Shown: positions 3-40,743, counted from the stretch's first letter. The stretch: DNA of 64,000 bases from a virus (IMGVR_UViG_3300028883_000033:64001-128000); one strand, 5' to 3'. A program made the numbers and translations. Notes: generated from the letters alone by a model not told the origin.

Positions 3-2546
3 GCACGAAGTGATGAACTCCGACTGCAGTTTGTTAGTGAGGATGATTTGTGCGACTCTGGTTATGCTGCTAACGTATATGATTCTGCTTGCGGTTTTGC
101 TTTCCCAATTTCCGGAACGGGTGTGTTGGTTGTTGAAAGTGGATGGACTGGAATTTCAATCACTGATTCATCTCGCTGGGTTAACTACCCTGATCAGTTG
201 GCTGAGTTGAATGATAACAACGGTATCCTGTATTTTGATCTGCGGTTGCGTCCTGAGAAGATGCTTGAAGTAAGTTCGGCAGATCCTAGCGACATCATTG
301 TTAGTACAGGATCACCAGCAACAACGGACAACTACATTCGTCACAACTTTGCTTGTGACTTCGTGACGATTACTGGCAACCTAGGTTATCCAGCAAATCA
401 CTACATCGACAGTACTGTAGGAAGTGTGATGTATCCTATGGCGGCGGACGGTCGTAGTTCAACAGTGTCTGAATATATTCCGTTCTCTAATATGGTCCGT
501 GTATTTAAGGGAACCTACAATACTTCAGATCCAGCATATGATCCTTCTAATCCAAGCCCTTCATTCATTGGCGAGGAGATGATCAATGGTGTTGATTATA
601 TTGAAGTAGCATCAACGGATCCAACGGAATTGCGCACTAACCGACTGCAGTTTGCTCAAGACTTGTCTGGATATGTTGTCCGTGTGATATACGGAACTGC
701 TACCTTGTTGTCCGGCGTGCACTATGATATGTTTAATTCCAACGTGGTGCATGTTCTATCCCCTCATGTTATTGATGGTACGTTAAATGATGCTAAGGTT
801 TGGGGATGGACATTTGATAAAGAGTCAATTAATCCACATAAACTGATTGATACCTTATCCGAAACAGTTCTAGCTACGATACAATATTGGGACCCTGCAC
901 GTGGGCATCATTATTACAATGGCATTCATGTAGTAGATCTACAGGGGGACACTGACCCAGCTGCTTATAGTAACACACTTGAAACAGATGAAGGCCAGTG
1001 CCGCCGTATTGCTGCTGGTGGTATTTGCACTGATCCAACTCGCAGAACGGCTGAAAATGATTGGAATAAGCCACGCGTTGGAACGACTTGGATGGATACA
1101 AGCCGCCTGGGTTATGTTCCATATTACGATCCTGCCGTATATGATAGTACCGACGAGCAGTACCTGCAGTGGGGAACTCTCGCGGATTGGGCCGACGTTA
1201 AGATTTACGCGTGGGTTGAGTCTGACGTTCATCCTGAAGAATGGAACGCGCTTGCTGAAGCGGAGGAAGGTAATACCACCATCGATCAGAGAAAACGTAA
1301 ATCAGGCCGTACGTTCAAAACTCTATTCCGAGATAATGGTGGAGAATGGGAAGTCGCTCGCGACACCTATGAAGAGTTTGATGTGTTGTTTGACGCACAG
1401 ACGTTTGGAACGGAAACGGAGTTCCAAGTCACTGAGTGGGTTGATGTCAATAATGTGGATCTTACAGTTTATGTCAACGGCCGTCTGGTTGATCCTCAAC
1501 CTACACCATCATCCACCACGGGTTGGAGAATTATATCACCTAACACTATTGGAATCTTCCAACTAGAAGAAACCGATCGCGTCCGGGTAGTTGAACATCG
1601 CCCAGGTTATAACCCAACTCTTGATGATGATACTAATGCAGCAAATCTTGAAGCAGCGTTGTCAGGCTCTCCACAGATGTGGATGGAAGATTATCAGTAC
1701 ACGGTCGATACGTACTATGATCGTTTTGATATCGAGCGTTCGGTGTACTACTTCTGGGTTGAAGATAAAGTAACGCGCGGCACGAAATCAATGTCACCTC
1801 AGGCGGCTCAAGATTCTATGGTTGATATTCCTATCCCATATGCATTCTATGATGATGTTCGTCAATCGCGAGTGGTTACATTTGAAGGCGAAACAGTCCA
1901 AATCCCTGTTCACTTCACCCGTTCGGTCATTCGTGGTATCCGTGATATCATTAATGATAGTGATCGGTATGCGATTCGTTGGACGCGAGACCATACTCTA
2001 CGTGATACCTTGGATACCGGAACAACAGCGCTTGAAAAGAAACAGTTACATGAACAGTGGGAGCTGATTCGTCGTGAGATGCCTTATCACATCCCTCGCG
2101 CGTTGTGGGATAAGGTGACTGAGTCTATAGTTCAGTACAAATTGAACGATCCGACTACTCGTGTTCCTTCGTATCAGCGCGAATTGTATGATGAGGAAAA
2201 CGGAACAGATACTAGGTATGGTCTGAGAGATGGACAGGCGTTCACTGATGGTACGCTAGCGCTTGCCACGATCATTGCTGACCTGAATAATCCTGATAAT
2301 GATTTTAAACCAGTGGATATCAACGTATTTTTCCAGCAACACTCATTTGATACTGCGGAAGATATCGTGGACTCCATGAACACAATTTACAACACATTCC
2401 CGTTCGTACACGTGAATAGAATGTTCTTTGATGTGCTTCTTGATGCGTTTTCCGTCAAGCGTAAATACGAGGATATATTTAAAACCTCGATGGTAGCATT
2501 GCATGGCATCAGACCATTCCAGGTTGGTGGACTATTTGACGATTAA
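3..2546 (+). CDS. Large baseplate wedge-like structural protein, 5'-truncated by the window edge
   Basis: Frame is open from position 3 (ARSDELRLQF...), so the 48 start is an artefact. WG..A..DVKIYAWVES.V.P.EW and YYFWV blocks resemble jumbo-phage baseplate wedge proteins; first gene of the structural block. Confidence 0.6.
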   Translation, partial: ARSDELRLQFVSEDDLCDSGYAANVYDSACGFAFPISGTGVLVVESGWTGISITDSSRWVNYPDQLAELNDNNGILYFDLRLRPEKMLEVSSADPSDIIVSTGSPATTDNYIRHNFACDFVTITGNLGYPANHYIDSTVGSVMYPMAADGRSSTVSEYIPFSNMVRVFKGTYNTSDPAYDPSNPSPSFIGEEMINGVDYIEVASTDPTELRTNRLQFAQDLSGYVVRVIYGTATLLSGVHYDMFNSNVVHVLSPHVIDGTLNDAKVWGWTFDKESINPHKLIDTLSETVLATIQYWDPARGHHYYNGIHVVDLQGDTDPAAYSNTLETDEGQCRRIAAGGICTDPTRRTAENDWNKPRVGTTWMDTSRLGYVPYYDPAVYDSTDEQYLQWGTLADWADVKIYAWVESDVHPEEWNALAEAEEGNTTIDQRKRKSGRTFKTLFRDNGGEWEVARDTYEEFDVLFDAQTFGTETEFQVTEWVDVNNVDLTVYVNGRLVDPQPTPSSTTGWRIISPNTIGIFQLEETDRVRVVEHRPGYNPTLDDDTNAANLEAALSGSPQMWMEDYQYTVDTYYDRFDIERSVYYFWVEDKVTRGTKSMSPQAAQDSMVDIPIPYAFYDDVRQSRVVTFEGETVQIPVHFTRSVIRGIRDIINDSDRYAIRWTRDHTLRDTLDTGTTALEKKQLHEQWELIRREMPYHIPRALWDKVTESIVQYKLNDPTTRVPSYQRELYDEENGTDTRYGLRDGQAFTDGTLALATIIADLNNPDNDFKPVDINVFFQQHSFDTAEDIVDSMNTIYNTFPFVHVNRMFFDVLLDAFSVKRKYEDIFKTSMVALHGIRPFQVGGLFDD

Positions 2547-2548
2547 CT

Positions 2549-5500
2549 ATGGCAACAGAAAATAAGTGTACAGGTCTCAAAGTTCTCGACCCCGTCCAGG
2601 GGTTGGTGGACTACATTAACGACATTAAACCTTATCACACGAAAGTGGTTGAGGTGCTCGTTGAGTACGTCTATGGCGAGGCAGTGGACATTAACATTGA
2701 AGAGTATCTCCATACTCAAATTGATATGTTCCGTCCTGAAGAACCGGAATTTGGTTATGACTGTGTGCGAGGTTATAGCTTATTGCCTTATGGAACACCT
2801 TATGGTGGTTGGCCGATAGTTCCGCCTAACCCAGCGTTAACGGAAATAGAATATAATCAGTATCCAGCTTTCAATGCTTCGGCTGGGTCGATAACCATCC
2901 CAGGCAATCGAGTCGATGATATCAAAGTCGGGTCCCGCATTGAAGTTGTGACATGGATTGAAGATTTTACGGATCCTGAAAATGTTGTTACTCTCCCAGA
3001 CCCATCCAACAACTTTAACAAATTCTTCACCGTATCGCAGGTTGTGTATAATGGTGGTGGAATTGATCAGTGGGATAGCTTTCCTGATCCAGCAACGTAT
3101 CGCACTGGCGTAGAACCACACACAGTAGTTACCCTTTCGGAAGGGTTTGGATCCATTCCAGCATTAACACCTGAGCAGGTTTATGTAGGTGTTATTCGTT
3201 TAGCGCCAATGGAAATTGAGCGTGTGTATTCCTACAGCAATGTGGATGCTAGATTTGAAGCATCACCTCCAAACCTTATTCAGGAGCCGGATGAAGGATA
3301 TCTCCGCCGCGAGATTGTAGGCGTAGTCCTATCAACCCTTGATGGTTATGGGATCGCTATTCCAGATACAGGTAAGTTGATTGTTGGTGGCAACTTACTC
3401 AGAAGCAACATTTTTGTTGGCGATCGATTGGCCGTTTATGATTCATCCGGTAATAATGGCTTATACAACATAGCATCACTCTCGTATGATGGTGGCAACG
3501 ATGAAACGACGGTGGGTGTTGTTGAACGTGTCAGAGATCCGATAGCAGATGGTGTTATTCAGATTGACATTCCATCAAACGTATTTGTAGTTGATGGTGA
3601 CCATCGTTCGCGGTTTAAGCAGGGGTACGTATTCAATATTGCTGGCGGTTCGTTCTCTGGACGATACACCACATTAACATCTGACTTTGTAGATGGAAAA
3701 ACTCGTATTCGACCTACGAGTGATATCATCAACACCATATTTGGTATTGACATCATAGGAACGGCAACGGGTTTTGTTGTTCGAGGAAATCAAACAGGAA
3801 AGTTTGCGTCTGGTAGCCAGGTTAACGTTGTTGGATCACCTACAAATGATGGTTCATATGTTGTGGTATCATCCACATACGACAGCATCAATAATGAAAC
3901 AGAGGTTCAAGTATGCAGCGCATGCACAGGATCACCTGTAGCAGCCGATCCTGTTGATTCTGAAGCAGGTGGTCAAATATTTGCTGTTCAGATGGGTATG
4001 ATCAAAGAAGCTCTTTTCGGTTTCGGTGAAAGCTCCGACTTATGCGCCAACACGTATGGGACAATGGTTCGTGTTAAGTTTCATGAACAACTAACCTTTG
4101 ATGGTTTGGGTTTTGATGCTGCTGACGATCTGATTGTGCACAACATGGAGAATAATGATTCGTGGGGGTATGAACTTCCACTTTTCACTGCTTTCAGTTC
4201 GATGGAGCCAACGGTTACAGAAAGCACTGTTCCTCCAGCCGTTCCTTCTCTCAATGAATTTTGGTTCAACACATCAGCACCTGGCGTTTCAAGCTATGCT
4301 CGAGCTCTCCATCGTTTCAATGGCTCCGATTGGAAACCAGCGCAAACGATATACTGGTTAGATACAGACACCAAGTTGTTATACTACAGAACAAAAACCC
4401 CAACTGTCGATACGGACTGGGTACTGTACTTGGCTGAGCCTCCAGGCTTCAATGACATCCAACCTGCAGTTGGTAAAACTGAAATCATTGGCGCTGAGAC
4501 GTTCATAATTGAAGAGGTCGCACCAAACATCCCACAATCCACATTTACATTCAAATCACTATCATATGCAATATCGGGTATTGTTGACGGGGCATTAGCC
4601 GGTGTAGAAGATTACTTCCTCGTTGATGGAAATGTTCTTCATGATGCTGACGGTATTGACTTTACATCCGGATCCAGAATGTTGGAAGTTACTGGTAGTG
4701 GGTTGAATGACGGAACGTACACAATTTCTCATGTGACGTTTATTGCCGGTGATAATCAAACCAGAATTTATGTCGAAGAGAACATCCCGACGGTAGTGGT
4801 ATCTGGTGATATCACGATTGGGCCGTTGGTAGTTCCGGGTGTTGATGATACATTAATCCGCGTAACAATTAACAACGTTCCAGCACAAATTACGCTGGAC
4901 ACCGCGTCGCAGTTTACATTAATAAGTCCTGATTTTAACATTGGGGATGTTGTCAAAGCGACTGTATATGATAGAACGCGTCTCGAAACAAATGCAAATG
5001 TGAATCAGTATGGATACTCACCGCATACTATATTCCACGATAATATTACCGCAGTAGGATCGCCAGCTCATTCTTATGTTCTGTATGGTGGTGATTATGT
5101 TCACCGTATGATCCCTCAGAACGTGTTGGAAGTGTATGACGTCTCCAATAACACGTTACTAGAAAAACAACGTCCTCAAAGTTTTAATGTTTGGGATGTA
5201 GATACTACTGCGAACACTATCACGATTGATGGTGAGTATGATTGGTTCTTTACACCTGGTGTCATTCTTTCGGTGCTGACTTCCGACGGAACGCTCGAAG
5301 AGTTCACGGTAAGCTCAGGCTCACCTGGAGTTCAGGTGCAAGGGTCGCCAGCGCAGACAATCATTCCTGTAGAGGAAGACGTTATTGGACGTCTATCCAG
5401 AATAGCACCAGGGCATTTCAGAAATGCTCCTAGCTGGGATGTTTATGAGATTGATAACGTAACAAACTCAATCATCGTATATGGTGATTACCGAAACGCG

Positions 5501-7336
5501 TTCCCTGTCGGCACATTCGTCAAGGTGTTTGACTCTACTACAGGAAACAGCGATAAGTTGTTTGAGGTTGATGCTGTCACTTACGCAGCCGGTAATGGAA
5601 CAACAGTTATTAGCGTCATAGACCCGTATGCTCCAGCGTCAGACCCAATTCCGGATCCAGATCCACACACAACAACAACTGCGATTGTGGTTCCAGCTAA
5701 CCTACCATCATATCAGAATGTGTATGGCGCTGTGTATGATCCTCAGGTGGACCCATCGGTTCCTGGCGACAACGTGAAGACATATGTGTTGCCAACTACT
5801 GCAGTTCATACAGATGCTGACGCAATTTCGTACATATGGTATGGTCCACTACGTATTGAATTGGCGGTCGCGTTTGAGAACAATCTGAGAACATCTATTC
5901 TTGATGGTTTGGGAGCTTCCAATGAGCTAATGCAGGTTCCAGACCGTTACGAAATTATTGAAACCGATCGTACTGCAAATACTATAAGAATTCATCATGA
6001 TGATCCTCTAACTGGCCTACCTGTCGATTTAACAGATAGCTTCCCCGTTGGAGAAGTGATTCGCATTGCAGGGTCCGACGGTCAGTTTGAGTATCAGACA
6101 AATAACTACCAGTATGTTGTCAATTCTGTAGTGTGGGAAGAAGGTACAACCGGTGATACAATAATCACTGTAGAAACTGATTTTGATAAGCTGCCACCGT
6201 ATGTGGAGCTGAATGTTGTCAGTGCCACAAATACTGGAGGCCCTGCCAGTAATGAATCTCAGCTAGTTTTTGACCGTTTCGTTGGTTCACCTGCCTTTGA
6301 TTTGCTGAATATCGTTCATCAGTATCAGCTTGATTCGGGTCATACTGTTATTCGTTTCGACGAGCCAATCATTCACGTTTGGGGTCCTCGCAATGCGACA
6401 ACGATTACTCGTCTGGAATATGATGCAACAACAATTACGCTAACGCTCGACACTGATATTGAGGATGAAGGTTTCACCGGCGCCCTTGGTTTTGCACTGG
6501 CCACATTCATTGGTGGAATTTATTATGATTCGACTAACGTTGCTGTAGACTGGAAGGATGGTTATATCCTCCGCGAGGCATTCCGGATTGAATCAGCGAC
6601 AGAGAACTTAGCATCAACAGAGATCACAGAAAATCTCGATTTCGGTTGGGGCACCACACAACGTTGGGCTATAATTTCAACGGATGCTGCAAACAACACA
6701 ATCGTAGTTGCTGGAGACATTTCGGGTATTATTGATCCTGACGATGACGCCATCATTATTGGTTCTCAGGGCAATGACGGAATGTATGAAATCGAATCAT
6801 TCTCATATGCACCTGGCCCGGACGAAACTACGGTTGTGCTACGCAATCCTGGACTGCCTGTTGATCCTCCAGCTGGACTCGAGGGATACTTCCAATTGGA
6901 AGACATTGACATCACAAGTTGGTACCAATACCTAATAAAAGAAGCCAACTCAACGACAAATGTCTTCACGGTATACGGAAATGCTACCTTGGATGTTCAG
7001 TCTGGAATGCAGTTTAGAGTGTTTGGAACACTTAATGATGGATTGTTCACTGTAACAGCACCGCCAATATATGATGCTGCGACTACAACAACATCAATCC
7101 AAGTGGCAAATATAGATACCGACGACAATGGTGGTTGGATTGAGTCATACCGTGATTATGGTATTCGCCTCATATTCGAAGACCATGTCGGAATAGATAT
7201 AACAGAGAATGTAGATGCAGTTCTTGTCTTGACTGCTGGTTCTATGATGGATGCGTTTGATTACCCATACTTCGATATCGGCGCATTTGACGAGGACTAC
7301 AAGACGGTTGTGCATCTATATGGCAATACATTTTAA
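2549..7336 (+). CDS. Large baseplate/tail-associated structural protein with repeated beta modules
   Basis: 1595 aa. N-terminal DYINDIKPYHTKV motif as in jumbo-phage baseplate proteins; about 8 degenerate GS.GNDG.Y.I.S..Y....T.I.V repeats. Confidence 0.6.
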   Translation: MATENKCTGLKVLDPVQGLVDYINDIKPYHTKVVEVLVEYVYGEAVDINIEEYLHTQIDMFRPEEPEFGYDCVRGYSLLPYGTPYGGWPIVPPNPALTEIEYNQYPAFNASAGSITIPGNRVDDIKVGSRIEVVTWIEDFTDPENVVTLPDPSNNFNKFFTVSQVVYNGGGIDQWDSFPDPATYRTGVEPHTVVTLSEGFGSIPALTPEQVYVGVIRLAPMEIERVYSYSNVDARFEASPPNLIQEPDEGYLRREIVGVVLSTLDGYGIAIPDTGKLIVGGNLLRSNIFVGDRLAVYDSSGNNGLYNIASLSYDGGNDETTVGVVERVRDPIADGVIQIDIPSNVFVVDGDHRSRFKQGYVFNIAGGSFSGRYTTLTSDFVDGKTRIRPTSDIINTIFGIDIIGTATGFVVRGNQTGKFASGSQVNVVGSPTNDGSYVVVSSTYDSINNETEVQVCSACTGSPVAADPVDSEAGGQIFAVQMGMIKEALFGFGESSDLCANTYGTMVRVKFHEQLTFDGLGFDAADDLIVHNMENNDSWGYELPLFTAFSSMEPTVTESTVPPAVPSLNEFWFNTSAPGVSSYARALHRFNGSDWKPAQTIYWLDTDTKLLYYRTKTPTVDTDWVLYLAEPPGFNDIQPAVGKTEIIGAETFIIEEVAPNIPQSTFTFKSLSYAISGIVDGALAGVEDYFLVDGNVLHDADGIDFTSGSRMLEVTGSGLNDGTYTISHVTFIAGDNQTRIYVEENIPTVVVSGDITIGPLVVPGVDDTLIRVTINNVPAQITLDTASQFTLISPDFNIGDVVKATVYDRTRLETNANVNQYGYSPHTIFHDNITAVGSPAHSYVLYGGDYVHRMIPQNVLEVYDVSNNTLLEKQRPQSFNVWDVDTTANTITIDGEYDWFFTPGVILSVLTSDGTLEEFTVSSGSPGVQVQGSPAQTIIPVEEDVIGRLSRIAPGHFRNAPSWDVYEIDNVTNSIIVYGDYRNAFPVGTFVKVFDSTTGNSDKLFEVDAVTYAAGNGTTVISVIDPYAPASDPIPDPDPHTTTTAIVVPANLPSYQNVYGAVYDPQVDPSVPGDNVKTYVLPTTAVHTDADAISYIWYGPLRIELAVAFENNLRTSILDGLGASNELMQVPDRYEIIETDRTANTIRIHHDDPLTGLPVDLTDSFPVGEVIRIAGSDGQFEYQTNNYQYVVNSVVWEEGTTGDTIITVETDFDKLPPYVELNVVSATNTGGPASNESQLVFDRFVGSPAFDLLNIVHQYQLDSGHTVIRFDEPIIHVWGPRNATTITRLEYDATTITLTLDTDIEDEGFTGALGFALATFIGGIYYDSTNVAVDWKDGYILREAFRIESATENLASTEITENLDFGWGTTQRWAIISTDAANNTIVVAGDISGIIDPDDDAIIIGSQGNDGMYEIESFSYAPGPDETTVVLRNPGLPVDPPAGLEGYFQLEDIDITSWYQYLIKEANSTTNVFTVYGNATLDVQSGMQFRVFGTLNDGLFTVTAPPIYDAATTTTSIQVANIDTDDNGGWIESYRDYGIRLIFEDHVGIDITENVDAVLVLTAGSMMDAFDYPYFDIGAFDEDYKTVVHLYGNTF

Positions 7337-7383: not shown

Positions 7384-10300
7384 ATGGCAAGATTTAATTT
7401 TAGGCACGGGATTGCGCGTAGACAGCAAGATAGCAACAACAATCCCAATAACCTTCAGCCATCGAACGGCGGTTCATACGTTGACTTAATCGTATCACCA
7501 GATCCTACAGCCTTTCTAATTGCACACTTCGATGTCGACTACCTGGTAACTGAAAACGCCACAGTAGCAAAGGCATGGGGTCCATTTACGTCCGGAACGG
7601 ATTACTGGCTGTATTGGGATGTTGATTTTCAAACAGGTGCTCTATCTCGTGGATACACGACATTAGAACCTGAATTTGGGGCAGTGCCCCCATCTTCACC
7701 TGCTCCGGATCAACACTGGTTTGACACATCTGCGGTCGTGCAGAAAGTATGGACAGGCAGTTCGTGGATTGAAAAATTACGGGTATTTGCAGCAAAATAC
7801 CAAAGCGGTACCACGCTAATTTATTATCCGTTAGGGACACAGGTTGGGATTAGTGGCGGCGCCGTATTCGCTGGTAAAATTCTTTTTGACCCCGATCTCA
7901 ACCCGCTGCAGAAGTTCCAGCGGAACCGTCGCGGTCAATTCATTACAACAGAAACTGACCTGAACTCTCAGTTTAACCGAATTTCTAACTTTCGTGTTGA
8001 AGCTGCCGTTGTTCAGGGCGAGGCACAAGAAAACATTCCGATTCACCACGCGGTGAGTTTAAATAATTACGATACGCTAGTCCTTGCTGATCATGATAAT
8101 TCCAATCGACCAGCCATTGGTGTTGCGACCGAAGATATGTTCACGGGCGAAGTTCGTTCGTACATCACTAAGGGATTCCTCACTGATGAAGTTAATTGGG
8201 ATTGGTCGGCGTACCCAGCACAAACGGGTATCTTCCTTGGAGCTGCCGGTGAACTGGTAGCAGAACCAGACCCCCTCGTCTACCATCAGCAATTACTTGG
8301 TTATATCGTAAACCGCAACACGGTTTTCATTAACATTGAGCAGGCAATTGCTCTCGAACCGCCTGCTCAGCAGAATGAATTAGCGGTCGTAACCGACAGA
8401 AACACTGGTAAGAAAGTCGGCCGCCGGATTCCTCGGTTCCTTGAAGACCTTCAAAACGTTGATATCGCCAATCCACAAGATGGTGATGTTATCATTTGGG
8501 ATTCGAATACTAATACGTGGGTATTACAATCGAATTGTTGTGGTGGTGGAAGTGGTAGCCCTCAATCACTAAATGACCTTTCTGACGTAACCGCTGTTCC
8601 TGCTGTTGATGGATATGTTCTAGTTTACCGATCAGGTTCGCCTGGTGGGTGGGTAGCTGAACCATCAACAACAACAGATGAATTTGTAAGAGCATCCAGC
8701 ACGGATACTACAACAGGTCACCTCAACTCGAAGTTGGTGGCGGGAACTGGTATCAGTTTGAACTTATTGAATTCGGGCGGCAATGAACAGTTTGAAATTG
8801 CTCTTAGTGGTGGTGTTCCTGGTGCAGCAAGCGCCGGGCTATTTGTCACTGGTGTCTCTTCACCTGGTGGCGGCATCGTAAGTGACTTCGCCTACGTTCC
8901 AGGAACTGTTCCTTCGAACACCGTTTTGCTAGAAGCCACTTCCGATCAAGAAACAGTTCGCATCGAATTTATCGTTGAAGGAGATCAGTCCTTCTATTCA
9001 CCAACGGTCATTGTTGATGTTCCGACAGGAACGCCGGCGATTGGTGATAATGTGATAGCTACATTGACTCAAGATCCTCAAGATATTCGAACCTTCCACG
9101 GATACGCGGATATCAATATCGCTGATGGTCTAACGGCCGGCCGTATGGTTTATTTGGAAGCATCGCACGGTGCAACCGCATCGGTGTTGATCAAACGCGC
9201 GCCTGAAGCACCACAGATTCAAACGATGACGTTCAGTAGTGTATATCCTACAGTCGCTGCTGATCCAACATCAGGATATCCGGGTGGAACACAAACAACA
9301 ATTAAATCTGGAGATGTGTTCTATGTTTCAGGATCGGTGGACAACTCAGCTACACTAGTCGCCCTCAATACTGGTGGTGCTGTTGGTGGTGGAACATATA
9401 CTACTGCAACGGCTGGCGGCAACCTAGGTGCTATTGATTCCGCCGGTGCTGGTTATCGGACGTTCCTAATTCGATTCAACGCGAGTTCTGCCTCGGGCGT
9501 TCAGACTGCAACTGCAGAAGCGCAGAACAGTTTCGGTTCGTGGGGTAATCCATTTGTTACCACAAACAATGTGGTTATGGATCAGATATCTCCAAGCGTT
9601 AGCATCGGTTCGGTAAACTATCCAACACTTCAAAGTGCATTAAAATTGTCTGAGAGTGCTACCGTTACAAACACGGTATCAGGACAAGACTATGTGTATT
9701 ATTATGAAAATGGCGGTGCAGGATTCATCGACATCTCCAATCCAATAACATACGAAGCATCTAAAACAGTTACTCGTATAGGTGGTAATTACGTATACAA
9801 CGGGAACAATTTTGCTATTAAAGCATATAAGACATCGAATGGAACAACGACTACTGTTGCTACTGGGGATGTTAATATTTCTAATGTTGCACCATCTGTT
9901 GCAATCTCAGGCGCGACGATGAGATTGGTTTCTAGCCCGTCTGGCGAAAACTACGCGATTACATTGACATTCACGCAGCGGTTGCGCCAAGCACCTACGA
10001 TTGCGTCTAGTGGTGATACTACTGCTGGGGATCGTGGTTCTTGGAGCGGATCTGGCGATACTTGGTCGTTTACTCTAACTGTTGATGATGCGGATGTTAA
10101 GGGCACATATACGTGGGTAGTAAACAACGTTAATACGTTGTCCAACAATACCTACAATAACATAATCATTACCTCTGGCGTATCGTATGAGATTGGTGGA
10201 TTTACTACTCGTCTTGTTACTGTCGGCGCTCTTGAACAAGTTGTTGATCTTAATGTTGATATCACGGATCCATCAAAAGTTACCGTTAAGTATGCTGGAA

Positions 10301-10539
10301 CGACAGACAATTTGACGTATCGTGCTTCAGATCTATCACAGTTCCAGAAGGGATGGTCGACTGTCGATGATACACAGTTGGTATACACCCCAGGAGCAGA
10401 ACCGTTCCCGAACTGGTCAAATTTTGTATTCCAAGATGCGACCGTAACACCATCAAGTTGGTTATTCTTAACGGACGCCGCGTTCGCGGGGTCGAATACA
10501 ACCGGAACGTTACAACTTGAAATAGGGGAGGCTGCATAA
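7384..10539 (+). CDS. Virion structural / fibre-like protein
   Basis: 1051 aa, G/S/T-rich; L.DL.DV....P.DG.VL.W fibre repeats; Ig-like C-terminal half. Confidence 0.6.
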   Translation: MARFNFRHGIARRQQDSNNNPNNLQPSNGGSYVDLIVSPDPTAFLIAHFDVDYLVTENATVAKAWGPFTSGTDYWLYWDVDFQTGALSRGYTTLEPEFGAVPPSSPAPDQHWFDTSAVVQKVWTGSSWIEKLRVFAAKYQSGTTLIYYPLGTQVGISGGAVFAGKILFDPDLNPLQKFQRNRRGQFITTETDLNSQFNRISNFRVEAAVVQGEAQENIPIHHAVSLNNYDTLVLADHDNSNRPAIGVATEDMFTGEVRSYITKGFLTDEVNWDWSAYPAQTGIFLGAAGELVAEPDPLVYHQQLLGYIVNRNTVFINIEQAIALEPPAQQNELAVVTDRNTGKKVGRRIPRFLEDLQNVDIANPQDGDVIIWDSNTNTWVLQSNCCGGGSGSPQSLNDLSDVTAVPAVDGYVLVYRSGSPGGWVAEPSTTTDEFVRASSTDTTTGHLNSKLVAGTGISLNLLNSGGNEQFEIALSGGVPGAASAGLFVTGVSSPGGGIVSDFAYVPGTVPSNTVLLEATSDQETVRIEFIVEGDQSFYSPTVIVDVPTGTPAIGDNVIATLTQDPQDIRTFHGYADINIADGLTAGRMVYLEASHGATASVLIKRAPEAPQIQTMTFSSVYPTVAADPTSGYPGGTQTTIKSGDVFYVSGSVDNSATLVALNTGGAVGGGTYTTATAGGNLGAIDSAGAGYRTFLIRFNASSASGVQTATAEAQNSFGSWGNPFVTTNNVVMDQISPSVSIGSVNYPTLQSALKLSESATVTNTVSGQDYVYYYENGGAGFIDISNPITYEASKTVTRIGGNYVYNGNNFAIKAYKTSNGTTTTVATGDVNISNVAPSVAISGATMRLVSSPSGENYAITLTFTQRLRQAPTIASSGDTTAGDRGSWSGSGDTWSFTLTVDDADVKGTYTWVVNNVNTLSNNTYNNIIITSGVSYEIGGFTTRLVTVGALEQVVDLNVDITDPSKVTVKYAGTTDNLTYRASDLSQFQKGWSTVDDTQLVYTPGAEPFPNWSNFVFQDATVTPSSWLFLTDAAFAGSNTTGTLQLEIGEAA

Positions 10540-11881: not shown

Positions 11882-14800
11882 ATGAAAATTAATGGACATT
11901 TAGAGTTCCACGTACCAGGTGGCCTATCGTCAGACGGTCAGATTAAGAACGCGATTATCGAAGTTCTGTCTGAAGCGCCTGCGACTGGTGCACAGCGTGG
12001 TCGTATCTACTACAACGACGGTCTGACGACCCCAGCCGACAAAGGCTACTGGTACCACGACGGTTCTACATGGGTGAAGTTCGCTTCTGGCGGCAACACC
12101 GCAAGTTTGCAGAATGAGATCGATGCAATCGAACTTACTATCGGAGACATGATCAACTCCGACGGAACTGCAAACACAGCAAATATGAATGCGCTGACTA
12201 ACGTCACTGGCGCAAACGATCTTTCTGACGTTCTGACGCAGTTGGACGCAGCAATCTCTAGTTCTAACGAACTGAGTGAGTTGGATGATGTTACCATCAC
12301 CGGTGCAGCAGATGGGAATATCCTATACTACGATAATGGTGAATGGGTCAACGGAGCTCCTGGTGCGACTTCTGGCGTTCAGCCATATGACGCAGGTCTG
12401 GCTAACTTGGCGACTGGTGGTTCTGGCATTGTTGTTATGGATGGTGACACTGTTTCCTTCCGTACCCTAACCGCATCAACAGCTAACGATGAACTTGGTC
12501 TGTCAATCACCAACGGCAGTGGCGTTGGCGGCCAGCCTACAATTGGTCTTGACGTTGTTGGCCTGACAGCCGTTGGCGCAGCTCCTGCTGACGACGATGC
12601 GTTGTTCATCTATGACTTGTCTACAACGACAAACAAAAAAGTTACAGTTGCTAACTTGAAATCGGCGATGGTTGGTGCTAACGCACTTGGCGATCTGTCT
12701 GACGTAACTGACGCAGCTACTGGTTCTCTGGTAACTGACGACAAATACTTCTTCAACGCAACTGGCGCTTCTGCATACGAAGTTACAGCAGCTACCCTTG
12801 GTGCTCTGAACAACGTTGCAGATGGTGTTGACTCTGCTACAACTGAAGACGTTCTGGCATTCGACGGTACACAGTGGACTGCAATCACTGTTGCTACAAT
12901 GATCGGAGATGCAAATCTGGCTGATCTTGGTGATGTTAGCATGGTTGGTTCTCCAGCTCCTGCTGACGGTGACGTTCTGCAGTACAACTCTGGCTCCGGT
13001 AACTGGGAAAATGCTTCCCTGACAGGTGCAGGCGCAGCAATGCCTTACGATGCAGGCCTGGCAGCTCTTGCAGCAGCTGGTACTGGTATCGTTTCTATGG
13101 ACGGTGACAATGTTTACTTCCGCACACTGACAGCTTCCGCTGCAGCTGGCCTGGAAGGTATCAATGTTGTTAACGCTGATGGTACAGGCGGCAATCCAAC
13201 CATCGGTATCAACATCGATACGCTGACCGACGGGGGCGTCCCAGCTTCTACTGAGAAGGTCATGGTCTTCGATGGCACTAACAACGTTACTGCTACCATC
13301 GCACAGTTGGCTGATGCTGTTATTGCAACCGACATCAACCTGAACGACCTTGCTGATGTTACAGCCGCTGGTTCAACTTCTGGTACTGGTTACATCCTGG
13401 TTGGTGATGGTGCTGGTGGTTATTCTGTTGACGAAGTAACTCCTTCTGCTCCTACAAACTTTGTGGAAGCTGTTCAGGACATGATTGGTACATTCATCGT
13501 TGATGGTACTGATACAACTGTAAACTATGCAGATGGTTCCAACACGCTAGCGATTAACGTCGATGATGTTTTCCTACGTAATACTGGCGATACGCTAGAT
13601 AGCGGTGTTCTGACAGTTGCTTCTGGTGCACAGATCACGATTGCAACAGGCGGTAAACTGGTCATCACAGACGCTCCTGTTGATCCTACTGATGCAGCTA
13701 ATAAAGCATATGTTGATTCAGCTGTTGAAGGTCTGCAGACACGTCGTTCGGTTCACGCTGCTTCTACTGGTAACTTAGCCGGTACATTCACAGCAGGTTC
13801 TGGTTCTCCATGGGCAGGCGCTACCTTAGTTGTTGCTTCTGGTTCACCAACATTTGACGGTGAAACACTAGTAATCGGCAACCGCGTTCTGTTGAAAGAT
13901 CAGACTGCCGCTGAAGAGAATGGTATTTGGTATCTGTCCGCAGGTACTGGTTCGCCAATCAACGGCTACACTCTGACTCGTTGTGATTGTACTGATGAAA
14001 GCGATGAGGTTTCTGGTGCATACACGTTCGTTGAATCTGGTAACACCTACGCGAACACTGGTTGGGTTCTGGCTGTTGACGATCCTGACACGTTCGATAT
14101 CGACAGTGATCCTATCACCGCAATCCAGTTCTCTGGTGCAGGTTCATTCACTGCAGGTGATGGTTTGGGTCAGCTTGGCACAGAAATCTTCCTGGAAATT
14201 GGTGACCTAACAAGTGCAACGATCACATTGGCTGATGGTATTGCGTTTGACGATTCATCTGTTACCGCATCTGGTAATGATGGCGCAACTCGCTACACCA
14301 CAGTTCAGCAGTTCCTCGACGATCTGGATATCCTGACCGGCGACGCTGGTGGTAATGCTATCACAGCATCTGACGGTGTTCTGATCTCTGGCCAGGATGT
14401 TCAGTTGGACATCAACGGTCTGTCTGATCTGGCAACCACAGCTGATGACTACATGGTGTTTGCTGATTATGTCGCCGGTTCTCCTGCTACATACAACAAT
14501 CACATCAAGCGTACTGTTGCGGACTTCTTGACTGATCATAACATCGTTACATCTACGGGTGGTGGTGCTCTGACTGGTTCTGATGGTATCGTTATCGACG
14601 GTTCTTCCGTGCAGATGGATATCGGTGCTCTGTCAGCTGCAGCAATCGTTAGTTCTGACGTTCTGGTATTCAACGATGGTAACATCTCAGGTGCTGGTGC
14701 AACTCACGCTAAGATCACTGCTGCTAACTTCCTGGCTCAGTTGAATGTCGTTAATGGCATCGCTGGCACAGGTCTGGTTGCAGTAACTGATGCAACATCT

Positions 14801-17676: not shown

Positions 17677-18762
17677 TTACCCCAGGCGCCTAAGACCGGG
17701 GGCATAAGATGAAGATGATACCTGAGTTAGAACTGATTTTCTATGTCCTGATGAGTTTGTACTGATGTGAATCCATGGGTTTTTTCCGAACCACTCTAAG
17801 ATAATCTGATCGTAGTCAAAATTGTCACGAATGTACTGTGCCAGATCATAATATTGCTGTCCGGTATTTCCTGTTCCGTGGAATGAGAAGAACTGAAGAT
17901 CAGTAGCTTGACCCTTATTATGCTGGCTACCGCCTGATTTGTTACGCCACCCTGACGTTATAACAAAGGGAGGAACGTTGGAATCGGCACGCAGCGGCTC
18001 GAGAACAGTTTTTGCGTGGAAGCACAGGTTTTGCAGTATCTGCTTCTGTGATAAACCACATGGCTGTGTTACAGCAGACGAGAACCTGTATGTACTCACT
18101 GCAGGGCCAATTGTAAGATCATATGCTGTGTAATTTGCTGATAATGCAACGCTTGACGCAAACGTGTCAAAATCGGGGTATGGTGGAGATCCAGTTGCCC
18201 AGCTAAAGCTAGCACTGAGATTATCAATGTCTGTGCAATTTGCTGCGGGTGGTATATTAGGCGGAGGTTGAACTGAATCCTGTTCTTGCTCGGTTATGGG
18301 TTTTACCTCAGAACTTGTGAATACTGTTTCGGCACCAGGATTAATCTCTTCAGGAACGTCATTGTTTTCGAATACGTATCGATCTTGTTCGGTTGGAATT
18401 ATCTTTCGTCCAGTACCCAAAGTTATGATTGGTGCCCCTGCCAGTGGTTCGCTGTTATCGAAAATCGCACCGCCACCGCCTCCATCGGTGAATACATTAG
18501 GAGAGCCAGCAACTCGGGGGTGCCCGCACGTGTCTGGATCGCCAGCACTATTCACCGGAATGTTTTCAGCAAATACCGTAGGACCGCCGTTCGCGGTGTT
18601 GGGGGAGCAGTGGATATTGCCATTGCTACATGCGGCGTCGGGAGATACGGAAGACCCGTCCGTTGAAACCAGCAGATTGTTAGCATACACGGTTCCTTGT
18701 GTGGTTCCGGTGACTGAGCCACCAGCGCTATTGGAATCTGTTAATCTGTGAGTTCTTGGCAT
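17677..18762 (-). CDS. PAAR (gp5.4-like) spike-tip domain fused to an M15-family Zn peptidase
   Basis: N-terminus: R..D..S.GG...TVYANN...C..HC...TVFAE..P....GD..TCGH..VAGSPNVF (PAAR). C-terminus: ITSGWR, SQH.KGQA.D, WIHIS (peptidase M15A). Confidence 0.85.
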   Translation of the reverse strand: MPRTHRLTDSNSAGGSVTGTTQGTVYANNLLVSTDGSSVSPDAACSNGNIHCSPNTANGGPTVFAENIPVNSAGDPDTCGHPRVAGSPNVFTDGGGGGAIFDNSEPLAGAPIITLGTGRKIIPTEQDRYVFENNDVPEEINPGAETVFTSSEVKPITEQEQDSVQPPPNIPPAANCTDIDNLSASFSWATGSPPYPDFDTFASSVALSANYTAYDLTIGPAVSTYRFSSAVTQPCGLSQKQILQNLCFHAKTVLEPLRADSNVPPFVITSGWRNKSGGSQHNKGQATDLQFFSFHGTGNTGQQYYDLAQYIRDNFDYDQIILEWFGKNPWIHISTNSSGHRKSVLTQVSSSSYAPGLRRLG

Positions 18763-33840: not shown

Positions 33841-34842
33841 TTATACGGAGCGAATAAGAGGGTAAACGTCGCGAGGAACCTCTGGCACAACAAAAAATTC
33901 GCCGTTGTTGTAATAGAATCCGCTTGGATTCTTTTCGGAGGTTACATCCGTTACATCGACGTACTGGTTGAGAATCTTATCAACTGGCTGATACGGCGAC
34001 CCAGCGAGGAGAACAAGTATATCCCCAGTTGCTATGGGAGATGGTGTTCCTGTTCCCCCGGAACTATCAACGCCGGTAAATTTGAAAGTAGACCCAGATC
34101 CGATTGCTCCGAATGTCATCTCGGGGACGATTCCATTGAATGACCGAACACTGTAGATTTGTCCCTTAACAATGACTCCTTGGTCGTAATCCACCCATGG
34201 TGATGCGAGAGATGGCTCAGTATCGATTGAGTACTGAACAGTGTCAGTGATACCTGATGGTGTTGTAAATTCAACTTCCAGCGAAATCGCTGAAGTAGCA
34301 TTAAATGACCCAATCCTTGTTGCAATGGAGATTTCACCTCCACTGGAGAATTGTATTGGGGATTCCACTTCAACGGCCTCTCTGATTGTGGGTTTAAACA
34401 GATCAGGATCTGATTGTCTGGCAACGAGTTGAGCAATACCTGACCACGACCTACTAAAGACCAACCTGATTGTGTTGTCGTTGACGATAATAATATCGTC
34501 TGGTGTAATCTCTTCGCGGTTGTCTAGGTTACCCTCAATCGGGCGGTCAACGAAAACGGATACGATGGGAACAGCGCCCATGTTATGAACAATGATCCAC
34601 TCGTCACGCTCGACAGCCTGAGCGTGATTGTGTAATACTTTTCGGCTTTTCCAATCATCTAACCCCGAAACAGGATCGGGAATTGTTCCTCTGATGTAAT
34701 CAGGCAACAGTCGTACTTGGTATAGTTTACCACGACACCCATGAGTGATATTGCAGCGACCTACGTGCTCCAACCCCTCTATGTTGCGTTGTAATTCAAT
34801 TTCACGCTTACACGTGTCGCATTTGTAAACTACGATTGCCAT
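33841..34842 (-). CDS. Probable virion protein with N-terminal Zn ribbon and W.I.HN domain
   Basis: C..C ... C....C; WIIVHNMG.VP.VSV. Confidence 0.5.
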   Translation of the reverse strand: MAIVVYKCDTCKREIELQRNIEGLEHVGRCNITHGCRGKLYQVRLLPDYIRGTIPDPVSGLDDWKSRKVLHNHAQAVERDEWIIVHNMGAVPIVSVFVDRPIEGNLDNREEITPDDIIIVNDNTIRLVFSRSWSGIAQLVARQSDPDLFKPTIREAVEVESPIQFSSGGEISIATRIGSFNATSAISLEVEFTTPSGITDTVQYSIDTEPSLASPWVDYDQGVIVKGQIYSVRSFNGIVPEMTFGAIGSGSTFKFTGVDSSGGTGTPSPIATGDILVLLAGSPYQPVDKILNQYVDVTDVTSEKNPSGFYYNNGEFFVVPEVPRDVYPLIRSV

Positions 34843-36630: not shown

Positions 36631-36635
36631 GGGTA

Positions 36636-36668: not shown

Positions 36669-36699
36669 CACGAAAATCATATATTGGAGAGAATGCACC

Positions 36700-39600
36700 A
36701 TGAAGCATTACGGTTTTGAGAACCCTGAAGGCAGTAGCCTAAAAAATATAACAGCCCCTAGCGGAACGGCGTTTCCTAGTGGAACGGAGAATGCTGGTGA
36801 ATTATTTTTCCGAACCGACGAAAGCAAACTGTATTGTTATAATGGGTCTGGTTGGGTAGATTTAGCTGCAAGCGCTGTTGGAATTTCGGACATTGTTAGT
36901 GATACAACACCACAACTTGGTGGTGATTTGGACCTCAATGGGCATAATATTACAGGTGACGCCACCTTTACTGGTGTTGTGACCATTGAACAGGCATCTC
37001 CTGCAATCAAGATTATTGATACAGACAACGCAACTGCTGGGTATCACACGATCAATACTACTGGTACGAATGGGCAGAACTTTAACATTTCTATCGACCC
37101 TACCAATGAAGAAACGAATTCAAAACTCAACGTATGGATCGATGGTACAACAGTATTCACCATTGCGAATGACGGTACCCTCGAAGCAGTAACTCCCACA
37201 TACGAAAACCTTGTACTGGACGATAATGATATTCCGAACAAGAAGTACGTTGATGATAAGGTTATATCAGGAGCTCTGCAGAACGTCGTAGAGGATACCA
37301 GTCCACAGCTTGGTGGTGACCTGGACGTAAACGGAAATTCAATAATTAGTTCTCTCCAGGGCGGCAATATTGCAGTTGTAAGTGGTGATAATGCGAGCGG
37401 ATCTGCAGGAAGTGTTATAATTTCAACGGGCTTTGGCACTGCGGATAATGGAACGATTGAGTTTAATATTGGTAGCACATTAGCACTAGAAATCGAAACC
37501 GACGGAACCCTATCTACAAATGTTGTTTCGTATGAATCGCTAATCGTTGATAACAATGACATACCAAATAAAAAGTATGTTGACGATGCTATTGACACTG
37601 CTGTTGACACTGCCGTAACTGCAAATCCATTTGTTATCAGCGGTCTTATCCCCACTTTGAAAATTATCGAAACTGATGCAACAGCCGATAATAAGAATTG
37701 GTCATTGAAAGCCAACGACGAGGAACTATATTTCCAAGCTCTTACTGATGCTGACTCTGGTGGTGGAAATGTTATTGCAATTACGCGGGCTGCGCAGCAA
37801 ATCAACACACTCGAATTCCGCCAGGCTGGTGTTACTTGGGCCAAATTTGACAACGTGGATAAAGAGGTCACAATTACGGGGTCTGTTTGGATAGATGATC
37901 CAAACGTTCTGTTTAACCTAGATGATATTGTTGCACCAGATGGATATGCGTTTAAACGCATAACAACAAATGATGGCGGTGGCAACCTCAATATACGTAA
38001 CGGTATCTACTACGATGGTGGGTTCAAATACGCTACAGCAGCAGACGGTGGAGCGTTTTTAACTCTTGGTGGTGAGCTTGCCACCGGAGATGATCATGGA
38101 ACGGTAACGCTTGGTGCATACAAAGCCAACACAGGGTCGGCAGGTGATGCTGCCGGGAACCCAACAACCCGCTTGTCGCTTCGTGACGTTATTCGAATGA
38201 GTATGGACGACACGGATGTGTTCAAAGTTGATACTGACGGAACAATATCTGCAGGCGACACGGTAAACTACAAAGACCTTGTTATTGATGATAATGATAT
38301 CCCAAACAAAGCATATGTTGATGCTGTGGCTCAGGGATTAAGTACTCGCGCCGCAGCTAATGCAGCGACGACGGCAGCAATAACCGCCACGTACAGTGCT
38401 GGAACTGGCTCCCCCGAAATTGGTATTGGTTCTACACTAACAGGAACGAGCAACGGAGCACTCCCAGCACAAGACGGTGTTACGCTTGGACTGAATGATC
38501 GCTTGTTGGTCAAAAACCAAGGTGGCGGTTCGCCTGACCTAAGCTACCAGAACGGCATCTATTACTTGTCGCAAGTTGGTGATGCTGGCAATCCATTTAT
38601 CCTAACGCGATGCTTATGCACCGATGAGAATGATGAAGTGTCGGGAGCATATACGTTTATCCAGGATGGTAACACATACCAGAGCACTGGATGGGTTCTG
38701 CAAGTCGATGATCCCACAACGTTCCAAATTGGAACTGACGCAATTACTGCTGTGCAATTCTCGGCTGCTGGTTCATACACGGCAGGGTCGAATATTGATA
38801 TAACAGGCAACGCTATCAGCGTTGTGGATGGTTCTGGTTCTGGTCTTGATGCTGATACTGTTGATGGTATTGAAGCAGCATCATTCTTGCGTTCTGATAC
38901 TTCCGACACTGCAATAGGCACTCTAACGTTTACCAACACGGTTAGCTTGGAACGTGCTAATCCGTTCATACAGTTTGTTGATACCGATGGGGTGGTTGAT
39001 GATAAGACGGCTAGACTGTACTGGTATGAGAATGGTTTCCTGTTCCGTTCAATGTACGACAACAACACAACCAAAGCCAACATACTTAAACTTGATGATA
39101 GTGCTTTTCTATACCTAGACAATGTAATTTGGCACGCTGGTAATGATGGTTCTGGTTCTGGTTTGGATGCTGATACCGTTGATGGTCTGGAAGCATCACA
39201 ACTCGTTCGTGGAGATGCTGTAGATCACGCCGCTGATGTAATCATTCGTGTTGATGACGCAGACTTTGCTGTTGAAGATAGTACAGAAACGACATTCAAA
39301 TATATTTTCCGCGATCATTCTGCTGGCCTTCTGTATCTTGGCCTAGAGCCTAGTGAGAGTGTGGGTACTGGCGCCTTCTTAACATTCCGCTCCGGTGTTG
39401 ATTTTGGTGGGTATGATTCATATGGAATGAACTTCCTAACTTTCACCAACAGTGAGCCATCACAACTAACAGCGGACGGTCAAGTTGGATTCGATAGTTC
39501 TCGGGGACTCATACTCTATCGCACACAGCACGTGGGCCAAGAATCTGGTGATGGTGGTTACACGGTTCTCGATACTTCAAATATTACTGGTGGGACAAAC

Positions 39601-40743
39601 ATCGAAATCACCAACACAGCAGCTAACACAGCTGGTACAGAAGCGATCACTTTCAATGTAACTCAGGGTTCCGGTTCAGGTCTTGATGCTGATACGGTTG
39701 ATGGTGTTGAAGCAGCTGATATCGCACAACTGGATGTGGCAAACATATTCACTGAAGACCAGGCAATCAGAAACACATCTCCGGAGTTGAAACTTCAGAA
39801 TACCGACGTAACCGGTAACTCTGTCATTTGGTTCCAAGACGCTACGGGGGCGGTGGCTGGTGATGCAGCGATTTTCTACAATCCTCCTGGAGATTTCTTG
39901 CGCGAACAAGTATATACATCTAATCATACTGACCTGGCGACATACATCACGCAGTACAGGTCTGGTATTATTACGTTCGGCGCTGGTGGGTCGAACGGAT
40001 CCAATGCTACTGAAGTAATGCGGATCAACGCCAATGGTGAGCTGCAGATTGGTAACGCCACTGACCTGGGCGATTACAAACTCCAGGTTACAGGCGATAT
40101 CTACTCCACGACCAATGTGCGCACTAATAACTATGCGATGATCGGATCGGATAGTGGTAATGGGTTCCACATGGAATGGGATACCACCAATTCTCGCTTC
40201 AAGCACCACTTGACGTACAATGACGGTGGCGGTAACTGGAATATGCGCATTGGTCACATATACTCCGGTGGCTTGGTTTGTACTGAAGCATCATACCCGT
40301 TCGCTATGGTTCATAATCAGACCAACGGCAATATGATCTTCTATACTACCAGCACAGCATATGCTGTTAACGATTCCGTAGCATTTAACAACACATTTAC
40401 GTTTGCCCCCACTGGTGACTTTACGGCATCGGGCAACGTAACGGCTTATTCTGACATTCGTCACAAAACAGCAATTGAAAACATCGACAATGCGTTGGAT
40501 AAAGTCAAAGCTATCCGTGGCGTCACGTATGAACGTATTCACGGCAACAAAGGCGAAAGAGAAGCAGGTGTTATTGCTCAGGAAGTCGAGAAAGTGTTGC
40601 CCGAAGTCATCCGCGAAGATGGAGATGGCATGAAGTCAGTTGCTTATGGCAATATGGTTGGTTTGCTAATTGAAGCAATCAAAGAACAGCAGGAACAGAT
40701 TGACGCATTGAAAGCAGAAGTCGCCTCTCTGAAAGGAGAATAA
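36700..40743 (+). CDS. Long tail fibre with C-terminal intramolecular chaperone (peptidase S74)
   Basis: DT.PQLGGDLD.NG x2, DIPNK.YVD x3, GSGSGLDADTVDG x3; SDIRHK, GVIAQEVE.VLPE, V.YGNMVGLLIEAIKE. Confidence 0.88.
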   Translation: MKHYGFENPEGSSLKNITAPSGTAFPSGTENAGELFFRTDESKLYCYNGSGWVDLAASAVGISDIVSDTTPQLGGDLDLNGHNITGDATFTGVVTIEQASPAIKIIDTDNATAGYHTINTTGTNGQNFNISIDPTNEETNSKLNVWIDGTTVFTIANDGTLEAVTPTYENLVLDDNDIPNKKYVDDKVISGALQNVVEDTSPQLGGDLDVNGNSIISSLQGGNIAVVSGDNASGSAGSVIISTGFGTADNGTIEFNIGSTLALEIETDGTLSTNVVSYESLIVDNNDIPNKKYVDDAIDTAVDTAVTANPFVISGLIPTLKIIETDATADNKNWSLKANDEELYFQALTDADSGGGNVIAITRAAQQINTLEFRQAGVTWAKFDNVDKEVTITGSVWIDDPNVLFNLDDIVAPDGYAFKRITTNDGGGNLNIRNGIYYDGGFKYATAADGGAFLTLGGELATGDDHGTVTLGAYKANTGSAGDAAGNPTTRLSLRDVIRMSMDDTDVFKVDTDGTISAGDTVNYKDLVIDDNDIPNKAYVDAVAQGLSTRAAANAATTAAITATYSAGTGSPEIGIGSTLTGTSNGALPAQDGVTLGLNDRLLVKNQGGGSPDLSYQNGIYYLSQVGDAGNPFILTRCLCTDENDEVSGAYTFIQDGNTYQSTGWVLQVDDPTTFQIGTDAITAVQFSAAGSYTAGSNIDITGNAISVVDGSGSGLDADTVDGIEAASFLRSDTSDTAIGTLTFTNTVSLERANPFIQFVDTDGVVDDKTARLYWYENGFLFRSMYDNNTTKANILKLDDSAFLYLDNVIWHAGNDGSGSGLDADTVDGLEASQLVRGDAVDHAADVIIRVDDADFAVEDSTETTFKYIFRDHSAGLLYLGLEPSESVGTGAFLTFRSGVDFGGYDSYGMNFLTFTNSEPSQLTADGQVGFDSSRGLILYRTQHVGQESGDGGYTVLDTSNITGGTNIEITNTAANTAGTEAITFNVTQGSGSGLDADTVDGVEAADIAQLDVANIFTEDQAIRNTSPELKLQNTDVTGNSVIWFQDATGAVAGDAAIFYNPPGDFLREQVYTSNHTDLATYITQYRSGIITFGAGGSNGSNATEVMRINANGELQIGNATDLGDYKLQVTGDIYSTTNVRTNNYAMIGSDSGNGFHMEWDTTNSRFKHHLTYNDGGGNWNMRIGHIYSGGLVCTEASYPFAMVHNQTNGNMIFYTTSTAYAVNDSVAFNNTFTFAPTGDFTASGNVTAYSDIRHKTAIENIDNALDKVKAIRGVTYERIHGNKGEREAGVIAQEVEKVLPEVIREDGDGMKSVAYGNMVGLLIEAIKEQQEQIDALKAEVASLKGE

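Follow-up and report, generated by a model that had tools for sequence, protein, structure and literature searches.

The tripeptide Gly-Ser-Pro (GSP) occurs about five times more often than expected in proteins encoded by a stretch of 64,000 nucleotides (hereafter the window) from an uncultured jumbo myovirus. The window covers bases 64001-128000 of a 147,644-bp linear virus record in IMG/VR (IMGVR_UViG_3300028883_000033; CheckV completeness ~43%) and contains genes for giant and fibre-type virion proteins, followed by replication and nucleotide-metabolism genes. The canonical tail sheath, major head protein, portal, head-tail adaptor, and baseplate wedge are encoded upstream of it. We found that the GSP motif is real, exact, a signal at the protein level, located in loops, specific to a lineage, and rapidly turning over. 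Something probably reads GSP, most likely a protein-modifying enzyme.

GSP is enriched in virion proteins

Fifty non-overlapping open reading frames (ORFs) of the window were translated mechanically, and the expected number of each tripeptide was calculated as the sum over each protein's own composition. GSP was observed 20 times versus 3.9 expected (~5x; Poisson p = 7e-9) and ranked first among all tripeptides for enrichment. The 20 copies were located in seven ORFs (Table 1), and the other 43 ORFs contained none. When the proteins of the ORFs overlapping the window were individually shuffled 2000 times, the mean number of GSP was 4.8 (S.D. 2.2) and the maximum was 14, versus 21 observed. An earlier note on this DNA had obtained the same counts in the same seven ORFs by hand, and mechanical translation reproduced them exactly. 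Its statement that replication and metabolic enzymes lacked GSP agreed with the absence of the motif from the 43 other ORFs, and its argument from a rough composition estimate survived the correction for composition as well as the shuffling. The note had also called all seven ORFs structural, which was correct for most of them; ORF 33841-34842, however, possibly does not encode a virion protein, and the product of ORF 7384-10539 is only sheath-like.

The same enrichment was apparent over the whole contig, with 46 GSP versus 10.4 expected (4.4x). All 46 were encoded by ORFs of the virion module, where 7.7 were expected, whereas the remaining 83 contig ORFs had none versus 2.7 expected. Elsewhere on the contig, 14 copies were found in a single fibre of 1180 amino acids (aa) and 5 in a neck adaptor.

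The enriched signal is an exact peptide

At the nucleotide level, counts of the DNA pattern GGNTCNCC were 40 in the sense reading frame, 2 and 3 in the two remaining frames of that strand, and 23 on the antisense strand. All four Gly codons, all six Ser codons, and all four Pro codons were used at GSP sites. The 21-nt flanks of the sites (n = 45) had a mean identity of 29%, with no pair at 70% or above; identity was below 0.57 in 987 of 990 site pairs, and the three pairs at 57-64% were old paralogous fibre modules. The view of the earlier note, that differing codons indicate a protein-level signal rather than a DNA repeat, was thus confirmed by frame specificity, codon diversity, and unrelated flanks. 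On the same three grounds we rejected a DNA or RNA motif. If a nucleic-acid signal (a DNA site or an mRNA motif) were selected with the peptide as a by-product, it could account for Ser being encoded by TCN in 40 of 45 sites versus 70% genome-wide; however, such a bias is expected if single changes in Thr, Ala, or Pro codons gave rise to the sites, and the probability of this explanation is negligible.

Exactness was evaluated in eight GSP-rich and four GSP-poor records of related phages (described below). In the pooled rich records GSP was observed 366 times versus 57 expected (6.4x), and in the pooled poor records 62 times versus 59. The tripeptides differing from GSP by one residue remained close to expectation in the rich records (GTP 1.2x, GAP 0.7x, ASP 1.2x, SSP 1.0x, GSA 1.1x, and GST 1.3x), as did x-S-P tripeptides other than GSP (0.2-1.4x). 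Since a generic turn preference would favour these neighbours too, their near-expected numbers speak against such a preference. The only other raised neighbour was GCP (3.1x in the rich genomes). A broader G-[S/C]-P motif was nevertheless rejected, in that all 25 GCP cases belonged either to GCPxC zinc fingers of homing-endonuclease-like ORFs or to other contexts outside the virion proteins. Multiple ORFs of ~300 aa with three tandem H-x(3-5)-G-C-P-x-C zinc-finger units were observed in the records G005, G004, G006, and G026 (e.g. L069:10530-11462); these look like homing endonucleases and inflate the GCP counts.

The residues surrounding GSP were also restricted. Lys and Arg were nearly absent from positions -4 to +3 (Lys at +1 and Arg at -1 each in 0 of 362 sites), with Arg at +1, +2, +3, and +5 reduced to 0.2-0.4x. 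Small or hydroxyl residues were preferred at -1 and Ala or Leu at +1, while Trp at +3 represented a recurrent hairpin repeat. Positions -4 to -6 were beta-strand-like and enriched in V and I. Two known sequence types were compared with this context and rejected. Collagen-like Gly-X-Y repeats form tandem triplet runs, whereas the GSP sites were isolated single triplets with unrelated flanks. The formylglycine sequon (C/S)-x-P-x-R of FGE and anSME did not correspond either, as Pro directly followed Ser and Arg was depleted.

GSP sites are located in loops and arose by insertion and substitution

Residues 560-800 of the tail-fibre-like protein encoded by ORF 11882-15580 were modelled with AlphaFold2 using a 40-row alignment (mean pLDDT 82). 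The model placed the GSP sites at residues 641, 654, and 690 in coil between beta-strands; a Foldseek search with it gave no significant match to a solved fold. When homologues of the ORF 2549-7336 protein were aligned, GSP mostly faced gaps or variable residues and was found in many different columns. The claim of the earlier note that GSP was inserted into loops was supported by these alignment gaps and variable loops and by the three modelled sites in coil, and the three pairs of paralogous segments quoted there were present at the genes named. All 46 contig sites were in virion-module regions, with sites falling in alignment gaps and variable loops, as would be expected of the exposed acceptors in mycobacteriophage-type glycosylation.

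GSP number differed sharply among homologues. Those of the ORF 2549-7336 protein were bimodal, ten having 9-22 GSP and seven 0-2; one homologue with 65% identity had only 2. For the fibre domain at residues 560-800, 106 of 120 homologues had 0-1 GSP and only eight had 4-16, two of which were this contig's own proteins. The GSP excess is therefore not a property of the folds. Compared with orthologues, some sites of the source contig (G000) were insertions, including 3-residue ones, and others were substitutions at a conserved G-x-P: in the canonical sheath, for instance, GVP or GIP became GSP, and in the neck adaptor GTP did. Site 641 of ORF 11882-15580 was a 3-residue insertion compared with most homologues. 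At most five sites of G000 were common to any other single genome and, judging from these alignments, GSP sites turn over fast.

These observations bear on the possibility that no reader exists and that GSP is a favoured loop or turn insert spread by drift, mutational bias, or exchange among paralogous fibre modules. Several sites do occupy old paralogous fibre-module positions, among them the pairs with 57-64% flank identity and the position shared by residue 641 of ORF 11882 and residue 570 of ORF 36700. Such an insert would also suit the beta-strand-like, V- and I-enriched positions -4 to -6 and the wide variation of site numbers inside the GSP-rich clade. However, the similar neighbours GTP, GAP, SSP, and ASP were not enriched, nearly all site pairs fell below the flank identity of those modules, and GSP also arose by substitution at a conserved G-x-P of non-fibre proteins, e.g. 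the canonical sheath. Moreover, homologous domains in other phages lacked GSP, and a sister lineage (G002) had no excess. An explanation with no reader is thus unlikely.

GSP-rich genomes form one clade

Cultured relatives of the source genome were distant, the sheath-like protein being 32% identical to its counterpart in Pseudomonas phage PaBG. A DNA-level search for close cultured relatives gave no match, and single-protein searches of IMG/VR yielded few relatives. A profile search of IMG/VR identified 45 loci, of which ten had 7.6-20x the expected GSP and most others were at or near 1. Twelve whole records were then compared. Eight were GSP-rich: G000 (4.4x), G005 (5.6x; 363 kb, complete), G006 (11x), G008 (3.2x), G011 (4.7x), G007 (5.7x), G017 (7.9x), and G004 (15x). 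The other four were GSP-poor, namely G002 (0.9x; 90% complete), G029 (0.9x; complete), G012 (1.0x), and G026 (1.4x). The near-expected values of the poor genomes indicated that the composition null was sound. The earlier note had said that its proposal would be refuted if orthologues from phages without modifying enzymes were equally enriched; the values of the related GSP-poor phages came out in favour of the proposal.

A maximum-likelihood tree was built from 17 concatenated core proteins (7438 columns). Eight of its nine inner branches had 99-100% support and the ninth was unresolved, with the topology (G029,((G012,G026),((G011,G017),(G000,(G008,G002,(G007,(G006,(G005,G004)))))))). The GSP-rich genomes formed one clade, within which GSP-poor G002 was nested with 100% support.

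Covalent modification as a candidate function of GSP

The exact identity of the motif, its on/off state between sister lineages, the independent origins of sites by insertion and by substitution, their location in exposed loops, and the exclusion of basic neighbours together make a reader of GSP hard to avoid. The most economical reading is covalent modification of the GSP serine, to which we give an even chance. The existence of a reader, its enzymatic nature, and a glycan as its product are our inferences; glycosylation would be the leading candidate solely by analogy with mycobacteriophage particle glycosylation (virion O-glycosylation of these phages is mentioned in PMC11256854). In this model, selection would drive a GSP tag into solvent-facing loops of peripheral particle proteins in the clade, comprising fibres, the giant structural protein, the neck adaptor extension, the sheath-like protein, and the spike tip. 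GSP would be the acceptor site (sequon) for covalent modification of serine, with O-glycosylation as the leading possibility, and modification would precede or accompany assembly, in the cytoplasm of the host. Its enzyme may be encoded outside the window, either on the ~57% of the genome that the contig lacks or in the host genome. We also put forward, at somewhat less than even chance, the more specific proposal that an undescribed system for modifying particles, specific for serine, uses GSP as its acceptor tag in this uncultured jumbo phage clade, and that its writer, a phage accessory protein or a host protein, belongs to no family now linked to protein modification of phage particles.

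Several points weigh against covalent modification. With the rich genomes in one clade and G002 nested within it, the phylogeny supplies no more than a single gain and a single loss as evidence. A strict Ser without Thr is atypical for O-glycosyltransferases. Furthermore, no enzyme tracked GSP richness cleanly among the records examined. Searches of the contig for GT9 (PF01075), Maf-like (PF01973), and GT2 proteins were negative. Maf-like PF01973, absent in G000, matched rich G005, yet two poor genomes matched as well, G012 (64 bits) and, weakly, G029; GT8-like homologues of a G005 gene were found in rich G011 and in the poor, complete G029; and GT2 was found only in GSP-poor genomes.

The G005 gene in question is part of a ten-gene glycan-type island at 44.3-51.3 kb (L059:4286-11328) of this complete rich genome, which encodes two Maf-like proteins, one GT8-like protein, four methyltransferases, and one radical SAM/SPASM protein. 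Maf-like and GT8-like proteins did not discriminate rich from poor genomes. The GT9-fold heptosyltransferase (PF01075) that defines the BAHT (TibC/Aah) system had no match in the ~43%-complete contig. When 30 non-structural ORFs of the window were scanned against Pfam, no glycosyltransferase and no protein kinase was detected, which upholds for these ORFs the remark in the earlier note that no modifying enzyme was visible in the window. Ten further contig ORFs added neither, and no phage-encoded glycosyltransferase linked to structural genes was found on this contig. Because the contig is so incomplete, the absence of an enzyme from it is uninformative either way.

Gene content was also contrasted by an all-against-all comparison of the eight rich and four poor records. 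The rich fragments covered only the core third of the genome, so that the contrast had low power and a writer encoded in the accessory region or by the host was beyond its reach. Few families were common to most rich records while missing from every poor one: the prkA(yeaG)-DUF444(yeaH)-spoVR(ycgB) trio, a family of 106-116 aa, an ORF of 134 aa, and a protein of 259 aa that is itself GSP-rich.

The trio, identified with Pfam, is located at 130510-135380 of the contig (L211:2510-7380), 2.5-7.4 kb past the window end. All 6 GSP-rich records that cover the region carried it and no poor record searched did, 15 of the latter being >80 kb; among 47 related records it was limited to the GSP-rich clade. 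It was missing from G002 with both flanking genes kept. The phage PrkA-YeaH-SpoVR proteins, of which PrkA is the sole kinase-like product encoded nearby, could accordingly be viewed as a proline-directed serine kinase phosphorylating the GSP serines. However, G002 had also lost most other clade-specific accessory genes of the trio region. This association, too, consists of one gain and one loss. Outside the clade the trio was found in Ralstonia phage RsoM2USA (its trio genes are mentioned in PMC8504454) and in three uncultured phages of >630 kb. Neither RsoM2USA (14 GSP versus 17.4 expected, 0.8x) nor the trio-positive megaphage LR756502 (31 versus 30.6, 1.0x) showed an excess, indicating that the trio is not sufficient and that its association with GSP is probably phylogenetic. 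PrkA gave no host signal, as its identity to the proteins of many beta- and gammaproteobacteria was a uniform 66-69%. The biochemical activity of PrkA is itself disputed. Proline-directed S/T-P phosphorylation resembles the present case in that Ser is followed by Pro and the trio lies on the same contig, co-distributed in the clade. Such kinase sites, however, use both Ser-Pro and Thr-Pro with little constraint at -1, whereas the GSP motif does not admit Thr and always has Gly at -1. We therefore rejected the trio as the writer despite its perfect co-distribution inside the clade, and consider phosphorylation by PrkA very unlikely. The earlier note had inferred a recognition motif and had suggested looking for glycosyltransferases or kinases that co-vary with it. 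A protein-level motif in virion loops has held up, while proline-directed phosphorylation is disfavoured by GTP at 1.2x and by the two trio-positive phages without excess; co-variation was seen for the trio inside the clade and failed outside it, and the Maf-like and GT8-like proteins did not discriminate.

The 106-116-aa family includes the product of window ORF 61303-61653 (- strand), a 116-aa acidic protein with a weak tail-sheath domain match (PHROG 23). It was found in six rich records, was duplicated in G005 and absent from all poor records, and had been lost by G002 separately from the trio. This phyletic pattern, shared with GSP richness, would suit a non-covalent docking motif, in which a phage protein (decoration, cement, or chaperone) or a ligand from the host surface or the environment would bind the loops. 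Exactness, loop location, and on/off distribution suit a binding partner as well as an enzyme. On the other hand, a stretch of three residues is very short for a specific non-covalent interface, and the sites turn over fast and occupy numerous unrelated structural settings, a pattern better suited to a density-dependent coat than to defined docking sites. The link to the small protein, moreover, rests on the same single gain and single loss. Docking is thus possible but improbable.

Proline rather than serine could be the target, for instance of prolyl hydroxylation with or without later glycosylation, as in the Ser-Pro motifs of plants and algal viruses. Ser-Pro is a known context for the prolyl 4-hydroxylases of plants and chloroviruses, and Pro is strictly required in the motif. 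However, the prolyl 4-hydroxylase-type 2-oxoglutarate oxygenase domain PF13640 was absent from G000 and from the complete rich G005 and was found only in poor relatives (G001, G015, G016, G026, and weakly G012), and the other x-S-P tripeptides were not enriched. Modification of proline is extremely unlikely.

Comparison with known modification systems

Mycobacteriophage virions are reportedly O-glycosylated by phage-encoded glycosyltransferases (Freeman et al. 2023 is said to describe this). The proposed modification of GSP serines would resemble that system in that exposed proteins of the phage's own particle are marked for modification in the cytoplasm and the trait is on or off between related phages. 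In mycobacteriophages the targets are Ser/Thr-rich C-terminal extensions of capsid and tube subunits, glycosyltransferase genes stand beside the structural genes, and the glycans have been shown chemically. Here, by contrast, an exact tripeptide is scattered in fibre-type loops with no linked transferase and is known from sequence alone. Similarly, flagellin O-glycosylation by Maf (PF01973) would be comparable as cytoplasmic O-glycosylation of Ser/Thr on a surface filament protein, and rich G005 carries two Maf-like genes. Maf substrates, however, are not known to have a strict sequon and Thr is accepted, whereas GSP is strict; moreover, this contig lacks Maf-like proteins and GSP-poor G012 has them. 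The N-glycan sequons (N-x-S/T) that make up the glycan shields of eukaryotic viruses are likewise short and exact; individual sites come and go quickly in exposed loops, whereas their overall density is maintained. As residue, chemistry, compartment, and host domain all differ, this analogy concerns the evolutionary pattern only.

Full-text literature searches found no description of the GSP motif. Should GSP prove to be a sequon for modification, no exact acceptor motif would have been described earlier for the particle proteins of phages, and modified phages and surfaces could be predicted in metagenomes from sequence alone. It would provide a compact handle on the writer enzyme through co-expression with the 241-residue domain bearing three sites (13559-14281 of the window), and the on/off pattern between G002 and its relatives would serve as a natural experiment. 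A sequon of this kind would matter, too, for understanding how phages adjust their adsorption, their stability, or their evasion of host and environmental recognition.

GSP-bearing proteins of the window

The seven GSP-bearing ORFs are listed in Table 1. Including the part upstream of the window, the giant structural protein has 3 GSP in total, one of which is a long insertion compared with all orthologues. The sites of ORF 2549-7336 are mainly lineage-specific insertions or substitutions, and both sites of ORF 7384-10539 are in a segment that is absent or different in orthologues. The N-terminal half of the latter protein is the repeat region. It is one of two sheath-related proteins, the other being the canonical 599-aa sheath encoded upstream of the window (L208:1494-3293, - strand). 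At the two sites of ORF 17677-18762, in the order of the table, the G026 orthologue has GSN and a gap. Site 610 of ORF 36700-40743 is an insertion compared with both the paralogue in ORF 11882 and the orthologues. The single GSP of ORF 33841-34842 (0.15 expected) is plausibly a chance occurrence; orthologues have SSP, SAP, NSP, DTP, or KEP at this position.

Table 1. ORFs of the window encoding GSP (positions counted from the first base of the window).
Product	Position	Strand	Family evidence or context	GSP number	GSP positions (nt)
C-terminal 847 aa of a 3643-aa giant virion structural protein	3..2546	+	PHROG 10938 'virion structural protein'	2	309-317, 1665-1673
1595-aa peripheral virion protein, uncharacterised family	2549..7336	+		6	3833-3841, 3929-3937, 5057-5065, 5318-5326, 5342-5350, 6284-6292
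1051-aa sheath-like virion protein with inserted repeat region	7384..10539	+	PHROG 15433 over residues 483-1050	2	8554-8562, 8635-8643
1232-aa tail-fibre-like protein	11882..15580	+		5	12947-12955, 13802-13810, 13841-13849, 13949-13957, 14477-14485
361-aa PAAR spike tip with endolysin-like (peptidase) C-terminal domain	17677..18762	-	PHROG 281 (PAAR), PHROG 894 (endolysin); Pfam PAAR weak	2	18499-18507, 18184-18192
333-aa conserved protein, possibly not virion	33841..34842	-	adjoins DnaB-like helicase (32471-33799)	1	33994-34002
1347-aa tail fibre with C-terminal S74 intramolecular chaperone	36700..40743	+	many tail-fibre PHROGs; Pfam PF13884	2	38407-38415, 38527-38535

Other genes of the window and contig

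A 1090-aa protein encoded at 54619-57891 (- strand) consists of 11% Gly and 11% Ser, has zero GSP, and has no family match. It is located among non-structural genes, with homologues only in G017 and G026, and could be a fibre-like protein escaping the tag. The window also encodes a 410-aa ORF at 30498-31730 (- strand) with a K-x-D-G nucleotidyl-transferase (ligase-type) motif near its N-terminus, which had no Pfam or PHROG match and a sole homologue in G008. A homologue of the anti-CBASS protein Acb1 (Pfam PF23474, E 9e-31) is encoded at 59697-60158 (- strand), and a homologue of Thg1-like tRNA-His guanylyltransferase (PF04446) at 63100-63930 (- strand). At the contig end (144851-147075; L211:16851-19075), a caspase-family peptidase (PF00656, 358 aa) adjoins LamG-like and discoidin/F5_F8-type-C proteins.

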